Below, one piece after another: positions 9,064 to 52,779 of a DNA stretch of 64,000 bases. The notes under the pieces were generated by a model. It saw only the letters and a list, made by a program, of their open reading frames with translations. It did no database searches and was not told the DNA's origin. This DNA is from Octopus vulgaris (Eukaryota), in assembly GCA_951406725.2 (NCBI GenBank), contig OX597820.1, forward strand, positions 16,616,001-16,680,000, read 5' to 3'. Within the stretch, counting starts at the first letter, position 1, and every line of letters begins with the position of its first letter. A program made the position numbers and the translations under genes.

Positions 9064-9152
9064 TAAATATATATATGGATCAAAACAGTTTGATTCAAAT
9101 TCATTACATTATTTACATTTGATGGATATTTATCCTCACCTTGTTTGTTGTT

Positions 9153-9197
9153 AACACAACATTTTGGCTGATATACTCTCCAGCCTTCATCAGGTGT
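9153..9197 (-). ncRNA. Minimal type I hammerhead, inactivated (GAAA>AAAA)
   Basis: Minus strand: ACAC CTGATGA a GGCTGG agagtata TCAGCC AAAA tg TT GTGTT; change is consistent with CpG decay of CCGAAA. Confidence 0.65.
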
Positions 9198-9485
9198 ACT
9201 GGGGGAATTTCGAACCTGAGTTCCCATTCCTAAGGTATTTTTCTGATGTTATTATTATTATTATTATTATTCAGGTCACTGCTTGGAATTGAACTTGGAA
9301 TCTTGGGGTTAGTAGCCCACGCTCTTAACCACTACGACATATGTCTGTGGATGTATGGCGTAGTGGTTAAGAGCGCGGGCTACTAACCCCAAGATTCTGA
9401 GTCAGTGACCTGAATACTACTACTACTAATAATAATATCGGAAAAATACCTTAGGAATGAGAACCTAGGTTCGAAATTCCCCCAG

Positions 9486-9532
9486 GACACCTGATGAAAG
9501 GCTGGAGAATACATCAGCTGAAATGTTGTGTT
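9486..9532 (+). ncRNA. Minimal (Penelope-type) type I hammerhead, degenerate
   Basis: GACAC CTGATGA aa GGCTGG agaataca TCAGCT GAAA tg TT GTGTT; stems I and II pair; stem III vestigial. Confidence 0.7.
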
Positions 9533-12500
9533 AACAACAAAGAAGATGAGGACAAATATCCGTCAAATGTAAATAATGTAAATGCAGAGTATTCTGTGAT
9601 GCATAAATAACTGAATCACTCCAATTTTCAATACTCTAAGTTGCTTGTTTCCAATCATATATCTATATCTATAAACTATTCAGTTGTAAATTGATAACCA
9701 TGTGATAGACTGGCTTTCCATTCAGCTGGAATATTGGTCTGCCTGCCTAGCCAGCTGGGTGGAATCATTTGAAAGCTCCAATAATACTAGGAAGTGCATT
9801 GTGACCAATGGTGTATAACAGCATCTGACAGTCTGGTTGATACAACGATATATACATATGTGTAATAGGCACAGGCATAGCTCTGTGGTAAGAAGCTTGC
9901 TTCCCAATGACACGGTTCCAGGTTCAGTCCCATTGCGTGGCACCTTGGGCAAGTGTCCTCTTCTATAGCCTCAGGCTGACCAAAGCCTTATGAGTGGATT
10001 TGGTAGATGAAAACTGAAAGATCTGAATATATATATGTGTGTATGTGTGTGTATATTTTGTGTCTGTATTTGGTCCCCCCCGTCGCTTGACAATTGGTGT
10101 TGTTGTGTTTATGTTCGCCTAACTTAGCAATTTGGCAAAAGCGATCGATAGAATACATCTTGGGGTTGATTTGTTCGACTAAAAAAACCCCTTTCAAGTG
10201 GCACTCCAGCATGGCTGCTGTGAAATGACTGCAGGGTAGGTCAGGTTTGTCATACAGAGACCTTCAGCTGTGTGAATTAAAATGGTTTATTTACATACTT
10301 ATTTGGCTCACTGATTACAATGGTATTATTCTACTCAGCTGTGTTCAAATTCTGCCACGATTGAAAGGTTAATTTTTGCCTTTCACTATCTTTTGAATGT
10401 GTGGTGGGGTCAAAACAAGTACCTATTCCTTTACTACCCACAAGGGGTTAAACACAGAGGAGACAAACAAGGACAGGCAGACGGATTAAGTCGATTATAT
10501 CGACCCCAGCGCGTAACTGGTACTTATTTAATTGACCCCGAAAGGATGAAAGGCAATGTCAACCTCGGCAGAATTTGAACTCTGAACGTAGCGGAAATAC
10601 CGCTAAGCATTTCGTCCGGCATGCTAACGTTTTTGCCAGCTCGGGGGTTGATGTAATCGATTTACCCTCCCCTTGAAAAAATTGCTGGCCTTGTTCTGAA
10701 ATTTGAAATCTTTATTCTGCTCAACTGTTATTAAGCCAAGGCAGCTCAGGTGGGGGTTGCAGCCATGTGAATTAGTTACTGTGTGCACATATATGTAGGT
10801 GAATGTCATGTGTGGATAACCCTTGTTCTCATAAAGTGGGTGTGCATGTAACTTTAGTACATGAGTGTGTGTGCTAAGAAGGTTTTCATTTTTGAGCTCA
10901 GAGCTGCGGAAAGTAATAAGGAGGATACAGGAGACAGTCAACAAAGCCAGCTTCTATATATGGCTGAAGCAAGATCAAAAATGGCTTGAAAGCCATAACA
11001 TGCTGGCTGGGAAGTACCATCGCTAGGTGAGACTGGCTGACACTTAAGCAGCATCACTGATTGACAGGTAGGGGTCTCATTCATGGTGCCCCCTTCTCCT
11101 GGTTTGAAGGCTTGTACCACCAAACAGCTGGTCGGCTCTAACTGCTGGAACTGAAACTAATACAACACTGTTGGAAGGCAGGTTTAGAGAGGGTGTGGCT
11201 ATAACTACATGCCCTTCCCCTCCATTGGTCAGCTGAAGTTTAAACTGTGTCATGTGACAACTATGTGGTGCTGGCTGCTGGAGCCTACCAGTGAGTATTT
11301 AAAGGGAAATTTGTCAGGATGGTCAGTCACCAGCTGACCCTCGTTGACGCTGCATTGAAGAGGCCAAGGAACAGAAGATAAAAGGAGAAAGAAGAAATGC
11401 ACTCAATACCAGGGCTGATGACACTTCTGAAAGGTGGGGCCCCGCCATGTCAAAAATGGTAGAGGAGTAGGGGCTGAAACCGGACGTGGTTTCTTCTGAT
11501 GATGTCATTAGCCACTGGACCCTATAAAGGAACTGTTGAGGTAGCAAACCATGAAATGTGGTTGAAATTCCTATGTGTGAGTGTGTGTCTGTGTGTGTAT
11601 ATGCCATATGTGCATATTATTGGGCAAGTGTCTTCTTCTATAGCCTCAGGCTGACCAAAGCCTTATGAGTGGATTTGGTAGATGGAAACTAAAAGATCTC
11701 AATATATATACGTGTGTGTGTGTGTGTGTGTGTGTATTTTGTGTCTGTATTTGCCACCGCTTGATAATTGGTGCTGGTGTGTTTACGCTTGCGTAACTTA
11801 GCAATTTGGCAAAATCGATTGATAGAATCATCGTTTAATATGGTCAACCCAGGAACCTCAAATAGAGAATTCCTGGAATGTCTTTAAACTTTTCACTTTA
11901 CCACTAATCAGTTATATTTGAAGAATGTGAATCAGTTTGCTTTGTTCTTTCTTGGAAAAAACCCAGCATTTCTAGACTTTTATGCAAATCAGCACCATTC
12001 AAGTGTGGTCATTGCCAGTGCAGCCTGACTGGCACCTGTGCCGGTGGCACGTAAAAAGCACCTTTCGAGTGTGGTCATTGCTAGTGTTGGTGTGGTCATT
12101 GTTCTGTGGTGGTGGCATGTAAGATGCACCATTCAAGCATGGTCAATGCCAGTACCGCCTGGCTGGTACCTGTGCTGGTGACACATAAAAAGCACCATTT
12201 CAGCGTGGTCAATGCCAGTGCCACCTGACTGATCCTGTGCTGGTGGCATGTAAAAAGTGTGTGTATATGTATAATGATGTCTGTGTGTATGTATGTGTAT
12301 ACACCTGTCTGGATGCATGTGTGTATGTTTCTGTACATATGTATGATTGTGTGTGTGTGTAAATTAATATACGGATGACTGAATATCCATTGCTTTTTTT
12401 CAAATAATAAACTTTTGGTGCAGTATTTCATATGACTATACACTGAAAATATAGAGGGTCTGCAGTTTATACATACACATATCCATATGTATATATATGT

Positions 12501-12660: not shown

Positions 12661-13068
12661 CTAAAATCGAAATCGATCAACATCAATGGAAATTGTAGCT
12701 GTGATACCAGATACATGTAAGCGAACCATCCGAACGTGGCTGTTGCCAGCCTCGCCTGGACCTGTGCCGGTGGCACGTAGAAAGCACTATCCGATCGTGG
12801 CCGTTGCCAGCCTCGCCTGGACCCCGTGCCGGTGGCACGTAAAAAGCACCATCCGTCTGTGGCCATTTGCCTGCCCTGTCTGGCAACTGTGCGGGTGGCA
12901 CGTAAAAAGCACCCACTACACTCACGGAGTGGTTGGCATTAGGAAGGGCATCCAGCTGTAGAAACACTGCCAGATCAGACTGGGCCTGGTGCAGCCTTCT
13001 GGCTTCCCAGACCCCAGTTGAACTGTCCAACCCATGCTAGCATGGAAAGCGGACGCTAAATGATGATG
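12661..13068 (+). mobile_element. RTE LINE 3'UTR fragment
   Basis: Same 3'UTR as 16934-17400, ending CATGCTAGCATGGAAAGCGGACGCTAAATGATGATG. Confidence 0.8.
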
Positions 13069-13077
13069 TGTTACATT

Positions 13078-13490
13078 CATCATCATCATCATCGTTTAAT
13101 GTCTGCTTTCCATGCTAGCATGGGTTGGACAGTTTGACCGGGATCTGGGAAGCCAGGAGGCTGCACCAGGCTCCACTCTGATCTGGCAGTGTTTCTACAG
13201 CTGGATGCTCTTCCTAATGCCAACCGCTCCATGAGTGTAGTGGGTGCTTTTTACGTGGAACCGACACAAGGGCCAGAGGAGGCTGGCAAATGGCCACGAT
13301 CAGTTGTTGCTTTTACGTGTCACCGACATGGATGCCAGTCAGGTGGCACTGGCATCTGCCACATTCGGACGGTGCTTTTAACGTGTCACCGGCACAGGTA
13401 TCTTAGCTACAATTTCCATTTGATTTTCATTTTGATGTTGGTGTTAACGTACTTGACTCAATAGGTCTCCTCAAGAACAGTGGGTCACTC
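13078..13490 (-). mobile_element. RTE LINE 3'UTR fragment, tail-to-tail with the previous copy
   Basis: (CAT)n CGTTTAATGTCTGCTTTCCATGCTAGCATGGG start; reverse complement of the neighbouring copy. Confidence 0.8.
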
Positions 13491-16678: not shown

Positions 16679-16821
16679 ATTTGTTTTATAACATTATCAT
16701 TTATAAAATATTAATTTAATACGACATAAATTTTAAAATTCAAATAAAAGTAATTGAGAAACTATACATTCTTAATACAAGGCTAAAATTTGAATTAGCA
16801 ATTTACTGAAAGTTAAGTTCT

Positions 16822-16902
16822 ATATGCCCATGGGCATATGGTGTAGTGGTCAAGAGTATGGGCTACTAGCTCCAAGATTCCGAGTTCGATTCCAGGTAGT
16901 GA

Positions 16903-16932
<30 letters not shown>
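16822..16932 (+). mobile_element. Truncated second copy of the palindromic tRNA-headed element (centre plus one head)
   Basis: Perfect palindrome ATATGCCCATGGGCATAT, then GGTGTAGTGG..GGCTACTA..CCAAGATTCCGAGTTCGATTCC..GTGACCTGAAT(AAT)n, matching the 9.3-kb arms. Confidence 0.75.
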
Positions 16933-16933
<1 letters not shown>

Positions 16934-18027
16934 CATCATCATCATCATCATCGTTTAATGTCCGTTCTCCATGCTAGCCTGGGTTGGACGGTTCGACCGG
17001 GCATCTGGGAAGCCAGAAGGACGCATCATGCTCCGGTCTTATCTGGCAATGTTTCTACAGCTGGATGCCCTTCCTAACGCCAACCACTCCGTGAGTGTAG
17101 TGGGTGCTTTTTACATGCCAACTGCACTGGTGCCAGGTGAGGCTGGCATCGGCCACGGTCGGATTGGTGCATTTTATGTGCCACCGGCACGGAAGCCAGT
17201 CGAGGCGGCACTGGCTTCAGCTACGATTCGGATGGTGCTTTTTACGTGCCACTGACACGGAAGCCAGTCGAGGCGGCGCTGGCATCGGCCACGATTCGGA
17301 TAGTGCTTTTTACGTATCTCCAGTCCAGGGGTCCTAGCATCTGCTGGGTGCCAGTCATAGGATTGGTTCAATCTCGATTTCGATTCCGATTTCACTTGCC
17401 CCAACAGGTCTTCACAAGCATAGGTGCCTGTCGTCGGATGAGGTTCGATATCGATTTTGCTTGCCTCAACAGGTCTTTGTGTGTCCAAGGGAGGAAAGGC
17501 ATGCATAAGTGGGCTGGACTCACTTGTCCTGCCTGGTCTTCTCATGCACAGCATATTTCCAAAGGTCTCGGTCGCTGGTCATTTCCTTGGTGAGACCTAA
17601 AGTTCGAAGGTCGTGCTTCACCACCTCGTCCCAGGTTTTCCTGGGTCTACCTCTTCCACGGGTTCCCTCCACTGCTAGGGATTGGCACTTTTTCACACAC
17701 CTATCTTCATCCATTCTCGCCACATGACCATACCAGCGCAATCGTCTCTCTTGCACACCACAACTGATGCTCCTTAGGTCCAACATTTCTCTCAGGGTAC
17801 TAATGCTCTGTCGAGTATGCACACTGACATTACACATCCATCGGAGCATACTGGCTTCATTTCTTGCGAGCTTACGCATATCCTCAGCAGTCACGGCCCA
17901 TGTTTCACTGCCATGTAGCATGGCTGTTCGTACACATGCATCATACAGTCTGCCTTTTACTCTGAGCGAGAGGCCTTTAGTCACCAGCAGAGGTAAGAGC
18001 TCCCTAAACTTTGCCCAGGCTATTCTG
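16934..18027 (-). mobile_element. 5'-truncated RTE-clade LINE: ORF2 C-terminus (17520-17984), 3'UTR with ~55-bp tandem units and (TGA)n tail
   Basis: ORF with KGRLYDACVRTAMLHGSETW, RRLRWYGHVARM and GRGRPRKTW motifs typical of RTE C-terminal regions. Confidence 0.9.
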
Positions 18028-20452
18028 ATAATGTTATAAAATGAGTAAAGATATAAAACAAATAAATTATTTATTAATCAATTTTCCTGGTGTTGAGTCA
18101 GGAGTGTTGAATTGGCGTTGGTGAGTTGTCCCTATTTTTTGTTTCTTTGTTGTTATGCTAATTCATTTTTGTCAGATTATTATTATTATTATTATTAAGG
18201 CATTGAGTTGACAGAATCGTTAGCATGCTGGGTGGAATGCTCACTGTATTTCATCAAATCGAAATCACTGACGTGGGCAATGAATACTGCCCGATTGGCA
18301 CTCATACCAGTGGAACGTTAAAAGCACATCTCAGTGTGATTATTGCAAGGGCCATGGACTGGCTCCCGTGCTGGTGGCATGTAAAAAGCACCATTTAAGC
18401 ATGATCATTGCCAGTGTCGCCTTACCTGCACGTGCTGGTGGCATGTGAAAAACAACATTCGAGCGTTGTTGTTGCCAGTGCTGCCAGACTGGCTCCTGTG
18501 CAGGTAGCATGTAAAACACACCTTTTGAGTGTGGTCGTTGCCAGAACTGCCTGATAGGCCCTCGTGCCAGTGGCACGTAAAAGCACCCACTACACTCTCA
18601 GAGTGGTTGGCATTAGGAAGGGTATCCAGCTGTAGAAACTTTGCCAGATCAGATTGGAACCTGGTGCATCAGGTCGAGTGGACCATTCCACTCAAAAGGC
18701 CACTAATTATTATTGTTATTATTATTATTATTATTAGGCAATTCCTAAGAAGGTGACTTTACCTTTCATCCTTTTGGGGTCAATAAGTACCACTTGAGTA
18801 CTGGGGTCAGTGTAATTGACTAACCTCCTCCCGCAAGTTTTCGAGCTTTTTGTCTATAATAGAAAGAATTAGAGGTGGCAAGCAATGTTTCATTGCATTT
18901 CTTCTGGCTTTGCGTTCTGAGTTCAAATTCCACTGGGATTATCTTCCCTTTCATTCTTTTGGGATCAACAAAATAAGTACCAGTTGATCACTAGGGTTGA
19001 TGCAGTTGGTTAGGCTTTCCCCTAAAAATTGCCTTTCATCCTTTTGGTGTCAATGGAGTTAGGGTTAAGCGCTGTTAAGCTCTACAAAATTTCAGGTCGC
19101 CCTAAAGTAGATAGGATTATTATTATTATTATTATTATTATCCATAGGTAGCAAGCTGGCAGAATTGTTAGCATGCTGGGCGAAATGCTTAGCGGTATTT
19201 CATCCGTCTTTACGTTCTGAGATCAAATTCCACCGAGGTCAACTTTGCTTGTCATCTTTTCAGAGTTCATAAATCAAGTACCAGTCAAGTATTGGGGTTG
19301 ATGTGATTGACTGTCCCCCCTCTCCATAAAAAACCAGGTCGCCCTAAAGTAGAAAGGATTATTATTATTATTATTATTATTTATCTTTGTCATCACCATC
19401 ATCATCATCGTCATCATCTGAATATTTTCCTGCCTTGATCCTAATGTCATCAATATATATCCAAGCTTTATAATTCGCCTTATTGTCTTGTTTGCTCTGT
19501 ACTTCACTGAAATGGCTATATGTAACAAACATATTTTGCTCCTTTCTTTTTATCATTATTATTGTTATTATTGTTTTGCTCTGTATGAAATTGCATGTTA
19601 TATATATATACACACACATATAGGTACAATGTTGACTTTCTGGACACTGATGGTTCGGAACCTCTTGTAATCCATACTAATTTACAAGCAGGAACTTCAA
19701 ATTCCTGCAGCCACCAGACTAGTTTAGTGCGGTGCTTTGCAACCTTTTTTCACCTGCGATACACTTATATTCCTTTCAGAATCCGGCAGCACACCTGAAC
19801 TAAAAATATAATTAAAAGTATAGGGAAAAAAAATTATGTTCAGGTTACACTGCGGCACACCTAGCATCGTCTAGTGGCACACCAGTGTGCCATGGCATAC
19901 CGGCTGCAGAGCTTTGGTTTAATGGTACCTTGCACATTATAGTATTAATAAACTTGTTTAGCATGCTGGGCGAAATGCTTATCGGCATTTCGTCTGTCTT
20001 TACGTTCTGAGCTCAAATTCTGCTGAGGTTGACTTTGCCTTTCAGGGTTGATAAATTAAGTATCAGTTGTGTACTGAGGTCGATCTAATCGACTTGCCCC
20101 TCTCCCCCAAAATTTTGGGCCTAGAGTAGAAAAGAGTATTAATTTACTTGTATCATTTATACTGATATACAGATACCTATATTTCAAATAATTATTTAAT
20201 TAAATTTAATATTTATTTAATTTAGCACGTGTTGACCAAAGTGACCTTTATTGGTTTGGAAAAAATAATCAGTAAACCAGAAAGGCTTTGGAAGCAAAGG
20301 TCCTAGAAAGACAATGTTGTACCTGTATATATATATATATATATATAAATAAACAATCTTTGCTGCTGCAAAGCTATTGTATCCTACATTTATTTATCAG
20401 TATCTTTTGTTCTCTTTTCCTTCCCTTTCATTCATTTTGGAATGGTTACCAG

Positions 20453-20527
20453 ATGCCGGGAGGGATGAGCCTCGTTGCTGGACAAGTTCAACCGCAGATG
20501 GCTATGGATCAAGGCCAGACTAACATG
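20453..20527 (+). CDS. Internal coding exon B (MPGGMSLVAGQVQPQMAMDQGQTNM), 75 nt, phase 0-0
   Basis: Long pyrimidine tract 20401-20438, accag acceptor, ATG|gtaggt donor; GC-richer island; composition matches exon A. Confidence 0.78.
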
Positions 20528-21306
20528 GTAGGTCCAGTTTCTAAAGTAATCTCATGTTATTTTAACTTTTATTTTAGTTTGTTTGTATTTTACTTTTTCA
20601 TTTTACATAATCATAAAAAGACAAAATAAAAAAAAAAACGAAAAACAAAACGAAAACAAAAGAGCAGTTTCTCTTCTTTGTTAGATAACAAGGTAGAGTG
20701 AATATGTCTGGAAATTCTGAAATTTATATGGATATTCATGAAGTAGTTTATTCCAAGTATTCTTACTTCATCATCATTTAACATCCTTTTTCCAGTCTTG
20801 CATGGATAGGACAGAATTTTTTGAGGTATATTTTCTATGGTCAAATGGTATTTAATCACGGGCTCTAGTGCTTGTACCAGACCCACCACGGTGACCATTT
20901 AGCATTCACATTATTCCGTCAAATGTAATGCTTATTTATTCACATTGTTTTGAATTAATCATGCATTATCTCAGCTTCTAGGTGCAGTCCCATGGTCATT
21001 CATGACCAAAGGGGTCCCTAAAATATCATAGCTTCAGGATGTCGATAATGTGATTATTTAATTTAATGAATGACATTGTAGCATAGAAGTGAGAGGATGG
21101 ATGCGGTCAGTTTGAGCATAAAACAATAAGAATATTTGGGCTGAATATGGCCAGTTTAAATGCTAAACAGTCAAAGTATGTAATTACATAAATTCTTTAA
21201 TAATGGGAGGGTGTGTGATTAGTGTATGAGATTTTTCTGTAATCAACTGGCCCCTTTCCCTAAAACTGCTGACCTCATGCTAAAATTTGAAACAGTTAAT
21301 CTTGTA

Positions 21307-21536: not shown

Positions 21537-21977
21537 TTATCTTACACTAGGTTAGAAGAATTTAATAATATCCAGATTTGGAGAACCTTGGTTTGTTCAG
21601 ACAATTCTAGACAATTCCATTCATTCATTTTTTTTCTTGTTCAGTGTTGTATTGTTTTCTATTAAAACAGTTTTTATTCTACATCTACCTACATACCTCA
21701 TTTTCCAATCTCTCTCTATATATATCCTTTAAATATTTTCTTTTTCTTGCCTGCTTTTCCTTTACCTCACCATTCCTCTACCTGTGTGGCTAATTACACC
21801 TGATGCCTTCTTTACCAAATATTCTCTCCTCATGTCACATATTGCAAAGACTTGCCTATTGGTACCACATTTACAGTTTCTCTTTCTGCTTTCCTTGCAT
21901 GTTTTTCTCACTAAGATCACAATCTCTTTCTCTGAAGAGTTTGCATAAAACTAATGCTATAAAAATGTTCTTAATTA

Positions 21978-22269
21978 AACAATTGCAGCGTGGAAGGTGT
22001 TTATAAGCCATTTAAGAAACACACAAAAACCGTTAGATTTACTTCAGCATTTCAATATAATTTGTCAAAATATTTTCGTCGCTTTGAGACTGCGACCTCT
22101 TCAATGACAAAACTCCATGCTGCATTAAATTTAAATGTTGAAGTGAATCTAATGGTTTTTGTGTGTTTCTTAAATGGCTTATAAACACCTTCCACGCTGC
22201 AATTGTTTTTGTTCCAGCACACGATCTCAGATTAGGTCACTTGCTATGCAAGTACATCTCCGTAATTCC
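21978..22269 (-). mobile_element. Penelope-like non-coding insertion with fold-back end and internal minimal HHR
   Basis: 12-bp direct repeat TGTTCTTAATTA at 21966-21977 and 22270-22281; ~75-bp inverted arms 21977-22052 and 22133-22208. Confidence 0.75.
22061..22111 (-). ncRNA. Minimal type I hammerhead variant (C3>U)
   Basis: Minus strand: TTTGTCA TTGAAGA g GTCGC agtctcaaa GCGAC GAAA ATATTT TGACAAA; 7-bp stem I, 5-bp stem II, palindromic stem III AAAATATTTT. Confidence 0.7.
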
Positions 22270-23645: not shown

Positions 23646-24234
23646 ATAAGGATGTGAAATGATGCCTTTTTACCAGTGGTCTAAGACTTCTGATTCTTAA
23701 TTCTTCTCAGTGTCAAATTTTCAACCATCAGAAGTGGTTTTGGGCTCCCCACCCTTTTGTTTTCTCTCACTCTTTTTTCTTTTTAGCTGTATAGACTCTG
23801 GAATTAAATCAATTAACTTCTGTATAAGGATGTGAAATGATGCCTGTGGCATTTTCTTTTTGTAATCAAGTACCTTTTTACCAGTGGTCTAAAACTTCTT
23901 ATTCTTAACTCTTACCCTCACTCAATCGCTATACCTCCACTGTTCAAAAGCCGTCTCTTCAACACCTCTGTGTCACTAACCACCCAGCTTGCACTTATCT
24001 AACCCATTCAAAAGCTTTGTCCGGTCCTATATTTCTATCACATCTTTCGCTCAATTTGCACTTGTCTGAAACTTAACCTTATGCCTACTACTAACCTACA
24101 GTAAGCAACATTGCATTTTCTATCCCTGACTCACTGCACACTTTGCATGCAAACAATAAACACTGCACTCAGTATCAAAATAACACTAGCCCTCAGTTGC
24201 ACATCACTATTAGCCTACTGTTTCTTATTTCTCA

Positions 24235-24892
24235 TTTCTTTACTACCCACAAGGGGCTAAACATAGAGGGGACAGACAAGGACAGACAAACAGATTAAGT
24301 CGATTACATCGACTCCAGTGTGTAACTGGTACTTTATTTATCGGCGAGCTGGCAGAAATGTTAGCACGCCGGGCGAAATGCGTAGCTGTATTTCGTCTGC
24401 CATTACGTTCTGAGTTCAAATTCAACCGAGGTCGACTTTGCCTTTCATCCTTTCGGGGTCGATAAATTAAGTACCAGTTACGCACTGGGGTCGATGTAAT
24501 CGACTTAATCCATTTGTCTGTCCTTGTTTGTCCTCTCTGTGTTTAGCCCCTTGTGGGTAATAAAGAAATAGGTACTTTATTTATCGACTCCGAAAGGTTG
24601 AAAGGCAAAGTCGACCTCGGCAGAATTTGAACTCAGAACATAAAGACAGACGAAATACCTATTTCTTTGCTACCCACAAGGGGCTAAACAGAGAGGGGAC
24701 AAACAAGGACAGACAAACGGATTAAGTCGATTATATCAACCCCAGTGCGTAACTGGTACTTATTTAATTGACCCCAAAAGGATGAAAGGCAAAGTCGACC
24801 TCGGCGGAATTTGAACTCAGAACGTAACGGCAGACGAAATACCGCAAAGCATTTCGCCCGGCGTGCTAACGTTTCTGCCAGCTCGCTGCCTT
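24235..24892. mobile_element. Nest of three family B SINEs (+ copy 24344-24570 inside a - copy; another - copy 24660-24892)
   Basis: 16-bp TSD GGTACTTTATTTATCG at 24328-24343 and 24571-24586. Confidence 0.88.
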
Positions 24893-50400: not shown

Positions 50401-51431
50401 CAAAAGTGCATTGAAGCATATGGGCTGCCCAACTTCACATAGCATGTTTTTTTTTGTTTGAGATGTGTTTTTGAGATAAATGCATGCCTTACATGCCATC
50501 AAATATGGTTTATTGTATTTGGATTAAGTACTTTTTGTTATCTGTTTATGTTCCAAGTTCAATTCTCACTATGGTTGATTGTATTTTTCTGAAATCTATC
50601 ATATTCTGAAGTTTATAGATCTTTACTTTATCATTTTTGGTAACTTGCCTTGTGCCCAGTTCTAAGTAAATTGTTAGTTAACCCTTTCGTTACCGTATTT
50701 CTGTTGAGATGCTCTGTGTTGCTTTCAGTTACTTTAAATATAACCAAGAATTTAGTAAAATAACTCAGTTATCATTAAGCTATTATAGGAACATAAATTG
50801 TGACTAAGGTTTGGTGGAATATTTTAATTCAAAACTCATGAAATCAAGACATTTGTACTACAGAGCCAGAGCCAGTTTCAGCCGGGTTGGTAATGAAAGG
50901 GTTAAGAATTGTTTCTCTATTATATATTTTAACCCTTTTGTTACCATATTTCTGTTGAGATGCTCTGTGTTTCTTTCAATTAATTTTAAATATAACCAAG
51001 AATTTAGTAAAATAATTTACAGTTATCATTAAGCTAATGTTAGGAACATAAGTTCTGACTAAGGTTTGGTGGAAGATTTTAATTCAAAACTTATGAAAGC
51101 AAGACATTTGTGCTACAGAGCCAGCTCTGGTTTCAGCTGGGTTGGTAACGAAAGGGTTAATATGCTCAGATTAGTGGATGACAGAATTGGTAGCACACTA
51201 AACAAAATGAATATAGTTATGTCTCTTTATGTTCTGAGGTCAATTTTGCGTCTTGTTTGTTGAGGGTGATCAATAAAATAAGAACTAGCAAAGCACTGTG
51301 GTAGACTGAATCCGTTATTTTACTCTCCTTCAAAAATGTGTGGCCTTGTGTCTGTATGAGAAGCCATTGTTGGTATAGCCTGTTGTTACTGTGTACAGGA
51401 TAGCAATATAGATATATACAGCTTTCAGATA

Positions 51432-51986
51432 CAGGGTGGACCAAAATGATCTGACACATTTGGAGGCTTAATAAAAGCACAAAATAAGAAACAATGAAAG
51501 GAAAAAATTTATTTTCTGAATCTAAATATAATGCCATTTTATTTCATTAAGTTTTAAAAATTAAATCAGCTAAATGCTTCCCATCATTGTCAACACACTA
51601 TTGGAGACGTTCAGGAAAGTTATCGATAACTCTATGGATCATTTCTTCTGGAATGGTGAAATGTGATTTCTTCTTGTGGGGATATTTAAAATCAAAAGTA
51701 TTCAGTCATCGCCCTCGATCTATTGATGAATTAAAACGTGCAATTTGTGTAGAAATAGCAACCATTCCAGAAGAAATGATCCATAGAGTTATCGATAACT
51801 TTCCTGAACGTCTCCAACAGTGTGTTGACAATGATGGGAAGCATTTAGCTGATTTAATTTTTAAAACTTAATGAAATAAAATGGCATTATATGTACATTC
51901 AGAAAATAACATTTTTCTTTTCATTATTTCTTATTTTGTAATTTTATTAAGCCTCCAAATGTGTCAGATCATTTTGGTCCATCCTG
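51432..51986. mobile_element. Tc1/mariner (rosa/maT-like) derived palindromic element made of two inverted 3' ends
   Basis: TA TSD, CAGGGTG terminus, 226-bp inverted arms 51432-51657 and 51761-51986; CDFFLWGYLKSKV..RLQQCVDNDGKH transposase C-terminus. Confidence 0.9.
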
Positions 51987-52779
51987 TATAAGCCAAATAA
52001 AAGGTAACCTTTTAACATTCAGGTTATTCTGTCTAATGTAATGCTTTATCTATTCATATTCTTTTGATTTAATCATGTATTATCTTGTGGCTTTGAGGTT
52101 TCAATGATGTGATTGTTTATTTCTTAGAATGACATTGTAGGGTAGGTATGAAAGGTTGGATCTGGCTGTTTTAAATATTAACCGTTTAGCATTCAGGTTA
52201 TCCTGTCCAATGTAATGTTTATTTATTCACTTAATTTTGAATTAATCATGCATTTTGTCTTTACTTCAAGATTTCAATGATTGCTTACTTTTAGAATGCA
52301 GGGTAGGTATGACAGGCTGAATCTAGTCAGTTTAAACATAAAGCAGGTAGAATATTCGGGTTGGATGTGGCCGGTTTAAATGCCAAAGGGTTAAACATAA
52401 CCCTTGTGTCTGTAGAATTATAAACCATTTTTCAATGAGTTGTAATGTATTAATCAGATTGATGTTGGGGGTGGGTGGGTGAAGGAAAGTTTTACAAATC
52501 TTATGATCAGTAGGTTTTTTTTTCTCTGAACAACATTACCAATAACCCTAATATCACTTAACAAAATGTCTTTAATATATTAAGGCTGACATTCTCTCAT
52601 TGCCCACTTTCTTTCACATTATCTCCAAGGTGTTGGTTAATGCTTGAAGCTTATAATTTTCTAAACCCATTATCTTAATTTATTCAATTTTTGCTTAGCT
52701 TTCTACCACTGAATAAGAAATTATTGTTTCCATGTAATATAAAACTTGTAAACTATATCTACTAATTTTATTCTTATAG

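Follow-up and report, generated by a model that had tools for sequence, protein, structure and literature searches.

What kind of element leaves two copies of a tRNA-like sequence lying head to head? The question is raised by a 64-kb stretch of Octopus vulgaris DNA (contig OX597820.1, positions 16,616,001 to 16,680,000; hereafter the window), in which an inverted repeat of 478 bp spans positions 9104-9581. The reading that we prefer is that this palindrome represents one insertion of two pseudo-LTR (pLTR) copies of an autonomous Penelope/Poseidon retrotransposon, and that the element probably starts its own transcription at the tRNA-derived head of these copies, a start that RNA polymerase III (Pol III) may serve. 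Taken jointly, we give these statements a rough probability of 0.68.

The inverted repeat and its features

Sequence alignment of the two arms gave 85.8% identity, and folding predicted a 486-nt hairpin of -335.6 kcal/mol (z -34) that none of 100 shuffled sequences matched in stability, which bears out the inverted repeat of about 480 bp given in a preliminary description of this locus. On the strength of this predicted fold, the palindrome could plausibly form double-stranded RNA within a host pre-mRNA. The features of the window that belong to the family, read in the way argued below, are as follows.

9104-9346, minus strand: left arm, one pLTR copy from the head to the first 3' end, without the 35-bp extension
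9274-9346, minus strand: left head, derived from tRNA-Arg(ACG); A box with one mismatch at 9339-9329, B box at 9294-9285
9250-9271, minus strand: left (AAT)n tract
9104-9227, minus strand: left Penelope ORF start, ATG 9227-9225, with a frame that passes through the hammerhead, as judged from the open frame of copy L181 and the alignment with the N-terminus of homologue P0001
9153-9198, minus strand: left hammerhead, minimal type I; core G12 replaced by A, predicted inactive
9343-9352, no strand: decayed palindromic centre, derived from a small hairpin just 5' of the head in the autonomous element
9349-9581, plus strand: right arm, second pLTR copy, without the 35-bp extension
9349-9410, plus strand: right head, tRNA-derived; A box 9356-9366 intact, B box lost through an 11-nt deletion
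9457-9581, plus strand: right Penelope ORF start, ATG 9457-9459
9486-9532, plus strand: right hammerhead, minimal type I; CUGAUGA 9491-9497, GAAA 9520-9523, predicted cut after 9527
16816-16932, plus strand: second family insertion, consisting of a 10-nt inverted tail end, a perfect centre (16822-16839), head and (AAT)n, then broken by another repeat

The arm layout described earlier, with outward tRNA-like heads, (AAT)n tracts and hammerhead words, is present on both sides except for the deleted B box of the right arm. The left head matches a genomic tRNA-Arg gene at 42 of 73 positions. The hammerhead words are likewise found in both arms, but the left arm reads AAAA in place of the required GAAA and both arms lack the C of helix III, and the helix III palindrome is gone from both; in the right hammerhead, the G10.1-C11.1 pair is mutated as well. 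An Rfam search of the palindrome locus returned neither a hammerhead nor a tRNA match, ARAGORN found no tRNA across the 64-kb window, and no target-site duplication of at least 5 nt is present at the palindrome.

The second insertion had been noted as a remnant at 16822-16932 with a perfect centre adjoining the head. The centre is indeed there, but it is not merely a head with a centre: its ten nucleotides at 16816-16825 match the end of the family's tail in reverse complement, which makes the remnant look like a collapsed inverted arm.

The arm as a pseudo-LTR

In three of the first 30 family loci (L008, L012 and L016), the C-terminus of a GIY-YIG-encoding frame lies directly upstream of the head and stops about 35 nt before it. 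A search with this GIY-YIG peptide gave 2630 first-look candidates, and an arm or part of one was found 3' of the ORF in 28 of 30 loci selected in this way, the peptide's own locus among them. Walking upstream revealed a reverse transcriptase (RT) domain (PF00078, E 2e-10). The element has a single ORF with RT and, at its C-terminus, a GIY-YIG endonuclease (EN), which forms an open frame of 783 codons in the column majority of 27 copies. The GIY-YIG-type motifs were recognized by reading the translations, on which the Pfam GIY-YIG model gave no score, and no zinc-finger linker between RT and EN was visible in the translations inspected by eye.

At the other end of the element, an arm precedes the ORF in tandem in nine of 20 loci with an ORF start, as a partial tandem forming the pLTR, and the 35-bp extension continues straight into the element body at ORF-start loci. 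In the tandem copy L181, the frame that begins with the ATG 3' of the AAT tract runs uninterrupted across the hammerhead (no stops in 150 codons); four other printed copies of this frame contain 1-15 stops. The peptide encoded across the hammerhead can be aligned to the N-terminal part of homologue P0001 (44% over 142 amino acids). The supposed SINE tail therefore corresponds to the first codons of the protein. Overall, the protein is 55% identical to P0001 and 35% identical to an Anolis carolinensis protein, to which it is nearer than to other Penelope-like element (PLE) families of the same genome (27-34%). All 39 homologues have one common Pfam set.

From these observations we consider it very likely that the arm is the pLTR of an autonomous Penelope element, probably of the Penelope/Poseidon clade. 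The proposed link to Penelope and the minimal hammerhead are upheld. The idea of a SINE that borrows a Penelope-type tail is not: head, microsatellite, hammerhead and tail together are the pLTR of the autonomous element. Like SINE2 elements, the arm has a tRNA-derived head with A and B boxes, here 34 nt apart. A SINE2 head is missing from the partner element, whereas here the autonomous element carries it; and in place of a LINE-type 3' tail with target-site duplication, the 3' part is the Penelope ORF start and the window locus has no such duplication. Head-to-tail arrays of short hammerhead units, as in non-LTR retrozymes, were absent from 90 mapped loci, in which the tandems are either a pLTR joined to an ORF start or, in one case, a partial duplication (L200).

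A family with intact 781-aa ORFs, found with PF01541, was considered as the partner and rejected, as 15 of its loci were without the common tail. This PLE family (L077, L082, L323, L324) is young, and many of its copies keep an intact ORF of 781 aa; 3' of the ORF lie tandem repeats that contain TGATGACGTC, in which a motif scan found no canonical hammerhead.

Family size and insertion anatomy

We surveyed the family in the 2.8-Gb genome. A 29-nt tail motif has 6604 exact matches; it is present in 33 of 131 arms chosen without it, which extrapolates very roughly to 26,000 arms genome-wide. Forty arbitrary 10-kb stretches contained three insertions, each with a partial inverted arm. Of the first 100 tail-motif matches, 97 fall in the 90 mapped loci, which are confined to the first 36 Mb of C1; this set is biased toward less mutated copies and was classified automatically, with a few merge artefacts (L204, L222, L223) retained. 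The AAT tract is often split by 300-600-bp insertions of other repeats, which part head from tail (e.g. L147, L152, L157, L203). A 9-nt unit just 5' of the tail is present in one or two copies with the reading frame preserved.

An adjacent inverted arm is present in 51 of the 90 tail-selected loci and also in 18 of 30 RT-selected, ORF-bearing loci, but full twins account for only seven of the 90. Among 78 junctions, the start of the second arm is scattered from 0 to 237. Four loci have a common junction at +9. The sole recurring junction for which flanks were compared, L313/L316, proved to be a 3-kb segmental duplication; the two stretches are 97.5% identical, inverted and 0.86 Mb apart on C1, and could also be an assembly duplicate. 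Arms within a locus are 93.4% identical and arms of different loci 91.8%, only a slight excess. The 35-bp extension is found on exactly one arm in 39 of 42 complete pairs (p 6e-9 against an independent 50%).

Perfect palindromic centres occur at 459 exact sites and parent-type sequences at 534. Symmetric centres gave 1125 strand-matches, versus a single centre that retains further upstream parent sequence. The 35-bp tail was on the GT-reading arm in 11 cases, on the AC-reading arm in three and on neither in 11 (p 0.057), a hint that tail placement is tied to centre orientation. The head-to-head layout had been thought native to the family. This holds in that the palindromic centre recurs, but the twin is not the family unit, and the scattered inversion junctions do not look like copies of a twin master. 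The layout itself is ordinary for Penelope and already described, because PLE insertions are reported to have inverted, 5'-truncated copies, a tail of 30-40 bp at one end and palindromes at the junctions (PMC8557442, PMC3846280), and opposite-strand hammerhead pairs have been noted 100-700 bp apart in Schistosoma (PMC4209133).

The hammerhead

The family-majority sequence holds a complete minimal type I hammerhead core with helices I and II and an ACGU palindrome as helix III, so that the consensus does keep CUGAUGA and GAAA, a point that the preliminary description had singled out for checking. Its details are those of minimal metazoan PLE hammerheads (PMC4209133), namely an extra nucleotide between 9 and 10.1, the G10.1-C11.1 pair and palindromic 15.2-16.2; we see no structural difference from the published description apart from the mutations of the two window copies. 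Of 78 arms sampled, just 12 have an intact core; position N7, which is free in the core, is variable in 15 of 75 arms, and an Rfam search over 20 family loci gave no hammerhead match. A dimer, for which a cleavage test had been proposed, cannot form on one transcript because the two window hammerheads lie on opposite strands; both are also mutated here.

Hammerhead cleavage was considered as the origin of copy 5' ends and rejected. The cut is predicted at 189, and eleven of 38 tail-only arms begin close to it, at 187-196 (p 4e-4, or 0.019 after correction for scanning), but in an independent arm set only four of 31 starts fell at the cut site (p 0.31), and a GTTAAC microhomology lies at the same place.

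The tRNA-derived head

The head aligns without gaps to tRNA-Arg(ACG) genes of the same genome, the tRNA type compared, at 56-63% identity, and its suspected tRNA origin can be accepted. In the same genome, about 19 tRNA-Arg(ACG)-like matches are clustered at G000:C2:211.89-211.91 Mb, many of them about 206 nt apart.

In 39 of the 90 loci, the longer arm starts at -19..+20 relative to the head; 14 loci have the start upstream of this and six have it within the head. Another 20 longer arms start at the AAT tract and are uninformative because other repeats interrupt it, and the remaining 11 start further down. Thus 39 of the 53 longer arms that reach the head stop there (39 at, 14 upstream, six inside; Fisher p 3e-12), with an end rate at the start of the head about ninefold that of its interior. 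In 30 loci selected by the head, six of them shared with the 90-locus set, 24 begin at -4..+8. Only one of nine tandem 5' pLTRs extends to the head (L181). An independent SINE using the same head was looked for in the head-selected loci and rejected: 24 of the 30 have the Penelope tail downstream, three more have an inverted family arm, and three end in AAT.

Two further features could relate to transcription. Of 60 ORF-linked copies, 50 have a TATAAG hexamer that precedes head +1 by 34-35 nt and the commonest 5' ends by about 29 nt; it overlaps the ORF stop codon and so may be a coincidence, and it would suit Pol II no less than Pol III. The run TTTT is absent from the whole 2.7-kb unit: neither the 783 codons, taken as the column majority of 27 copies, nor the arm contains a T4 run. 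Synonymous shuffling of the ORF gave a mean of 2.7 runs (P 0.033), a Markov null P 0.078 and a run-length null P 0.07-0.10, a modest deficit. Control PLE ORFs of the same genome, from other PLE families, comprised six of 309-781 codons (five and a near-duplicate) with 1-9 T4 runs and one of 134 codons with none, while three more loci yielded no ORF fit for the count; eight related metagenome ORFs had 2-12. The controls thus lack the deficit. RNA reads, pooled from two raw runs and two contig sets, were spread evenly over the two strands and showed no pile-up at start or end; these data pool many diverged copies and are of unspecified strandedness.

Judged from sequence, the head at which most copies begin is probably the element's own transcription start. 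That Pol III serves it is possible, at somewhat less than even odds in our estimate. More tentative still, and rather unlikely as it stands, is the proposal that an autonomous coding Penelope has exchanged its Pol II promoter for a captured tRNA-Arg promoter and would be transcribed by Pol III from end to end. If it were true, TTTT terminators would have been cleared from the 2.7-kb unit, and the start site would have left its fossil map in the piled-up 5' ends of the copies. Against Pol III, its RNA would be uncapped and would have to reach translation in some other way.

A possible mechanism and its alternatives

The Anolis Poseidon protein cuts and extends both DNA strands, RT starts at two internal sites flanking the tail, and template RNA is needed beyond these sites (PMC11167929). 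In the octopus family, the element RNA would start at the head, possibly by Pol III. By analogy with the lizard element, whose protein is 35% identical, the protein would cut both DNA strands, and RT would initiate internally at two sites that lie a short way into the ORF, at distances of about 245 and 282 nt from the head. Head-started RNA would in this way give a pair of short cDNAs, on opposite strands, of which only one carries the tail; the two could be joined head to head via microhomology or via a small GCCC/GGGC hairpin at the RNA 5' end, a hairpin present just 5' of the head in the parent element. Where both cDNAs reached the end of the RNA, a full twin such as that at 9104-9581 would result. 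Since RT would start internally near the 5' end of the element's own mRNA, the short copies would be by-products and not a separate lineage. Snap-back of the cDNA at the hairpin could be an alternative source of 5' ends at -5.

One alternative, which we consider improbable although it is the strongest competitor, is that the head is a passenger, the stub of a tRNA-SINE once inserted into the 3' UTR. Copies would then derive from long Pol II or read-through RNA, nascent cDNA would snap back at the hairpin before the head and produce the pile-up of 5' ends, and later central deletions would shorten one arm. The parent element does carry the hairpin, the long arm may be AC-reading or GT-reading, and palindromes at pLTR 5' ends and inverted junctions have been described and put down to self-priming (PMC3846280). 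Against this, many junctions have a long-arm end at -4..+3 with no mirror and a partner that ends 50-240 nt away, an RNA hairpin would be expected to stall RT at about +10 and not beyond the loop, and a passenger head leaves the T4 deficit and the TATA spacing unexplained.

Still less probable is a reading close to that of the preliminary description, though with the twin no longer the unit: the short copies would make up a non-autonomous lineage of genuinely SINE-like kind, with solo head-to-tail copies transcribed by Pol III and re-mobilized in trans by the Penelope protein. Each copy carries the internal A and B boxes at their 34-nt spacing, pLTR sequence is reported to be sufficient for trans-mobilization in Adineta (PMC3846280), and head-start arms are slightly less diverged than ORF-linked arms (median 7.3% versus 9.3%, in sets that were selected differently). 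Against a separate lineage stands the comparison of 37 head-start with 41 ORF-linked arms, where none of 63 tested sites survives correction as a diagnostic position and the arms form one sequence pool. In addition, the minimal template of Anolis Poseidon reaches past the RT start sites (PMC11167929) while the solo copies end at them, and the one repeated junction with flanks compared, L313/L316, is a segmental duplication. Two further readings, in which the twin is a native bidirectional unit that moves in one piece or two insertions came together by chance, are largely refuted: the former has the perfect centres and the common +9 junction in its favour, against the rarity of full twins and the scatter of junctions, and the latter is ruled out by an inverted neighbour in 51 of 90 loci at about 10 arms per Mb.

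Relation to known elements

Poseidon_Ac (PAc) of Anolis carolinensis has the same RT and C-terminal GIY-YIG, an ORF start that overlaps the hammerhead, the same two 3' ends a 30-40-bp tail apart and a tandem pLTR (PMC11167929). The available text on it mentions no tRNA-derived pLTR sequence, whereas here a tRNA-Arg head and (AAT)n fill the 5' part of the pLTR and the 5' ends of copies pile up there. Pen2, Pen2a and Pen3a of Adineta vaga share the head-to-head inverted pLTR, the tail on one arm, the palindrome at the pLTR 5' end, microhomology junctions and a TATA-like motif in the pLTR (PMC3846280). The Adineta vaga Penelope elements differ in their low copy number and in a promoter read as Pol II TATA/Inr, with no tRNA head mentioned in the available text (PMC3846280).

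The nearest concept to a tRNA-type promoter in a pLTR is found among LTR elements, in TRIMp3 Cassandra, Helenus and Ajax, which have a small-RNA-derived Pol III promoter inside the terminal repeat, for which an origin by SINE insertion is proposed (PMC10886601). TRIMp3 are non-autonomous LTR elements with PBS and PPT whose autonomous partners must use Pol II (PMC10886601), while the repeat studied here belongs to a protein-coding Penelope. Schistosome Sm-alpha and Sj-alpha are also tRNA-derived repeats with a hammerhead, but they are tRNA-Gln-linked and SINE-like with canonical hammerheads, and no autonomous element with the same head is described in the available text (PMC2770079). Metazoan non-LTR retrozymes likewise consist of short repeats that carry type I hammerheads and are linked to the pLTRs of PLEs (PMC7229834; bioRxiv 10.64898/2026.07.22.740005); they form head-to-tail tandem arrays, whereas short copies here are single or inverted.

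A tRNA-derived promoter in a PLE pLTR was not found in the openly available full-text literature. The available text of two octopus repeat papers (PMC13282606, PMC8967140) contains no description of one, and no precedent for a coding retrotransposon on a Pol III promoter was found in the same full-text literature. The unusual part is the promoter-like tRNA head; the palindrome itself is ordinary Penelope.

Other features of the window

Other repeat families occur in the window as close inverted pairs or as nested tandem and inverted pieces (24234-24886, 12842-13314 and 21977-22208), and these may likewise have been mobilized by Penelope. An element at 51429-51989 has 229-nt terminal inverted repeats that are 96% complementary, and it resembles a Tc1/mariner-type non-autonomous transposon. 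A 185-aa open frame at 17520-18077 (minus strand) is similar to the C-terminal end of an RTE-type LINE. A candidate host exon with a polypyrimidine tract, AG acceptor and GT donor lies at about 20456-20530 (plus strand).

Significance

If the head is the promoter, this family would give direct genomic access to two open questions about Penelope elements, where transcription starts and how inverted pLTRs originate, and thousands of copies would record both ends of the template RNA. The two-start-site model taken from lizard Poseidon biochemistry would account for the twin, the tail and the centre jointly. Should Pol III read the whole unit, a retrotransposon that codes for protein would here depend on a Pol III promoter, and SINE-like repeats would arise without a separate SINE gene. 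Some of the tRNA SINEs annotated in such genomes may be Penelope end-repeats, which calls for caution in their classification.
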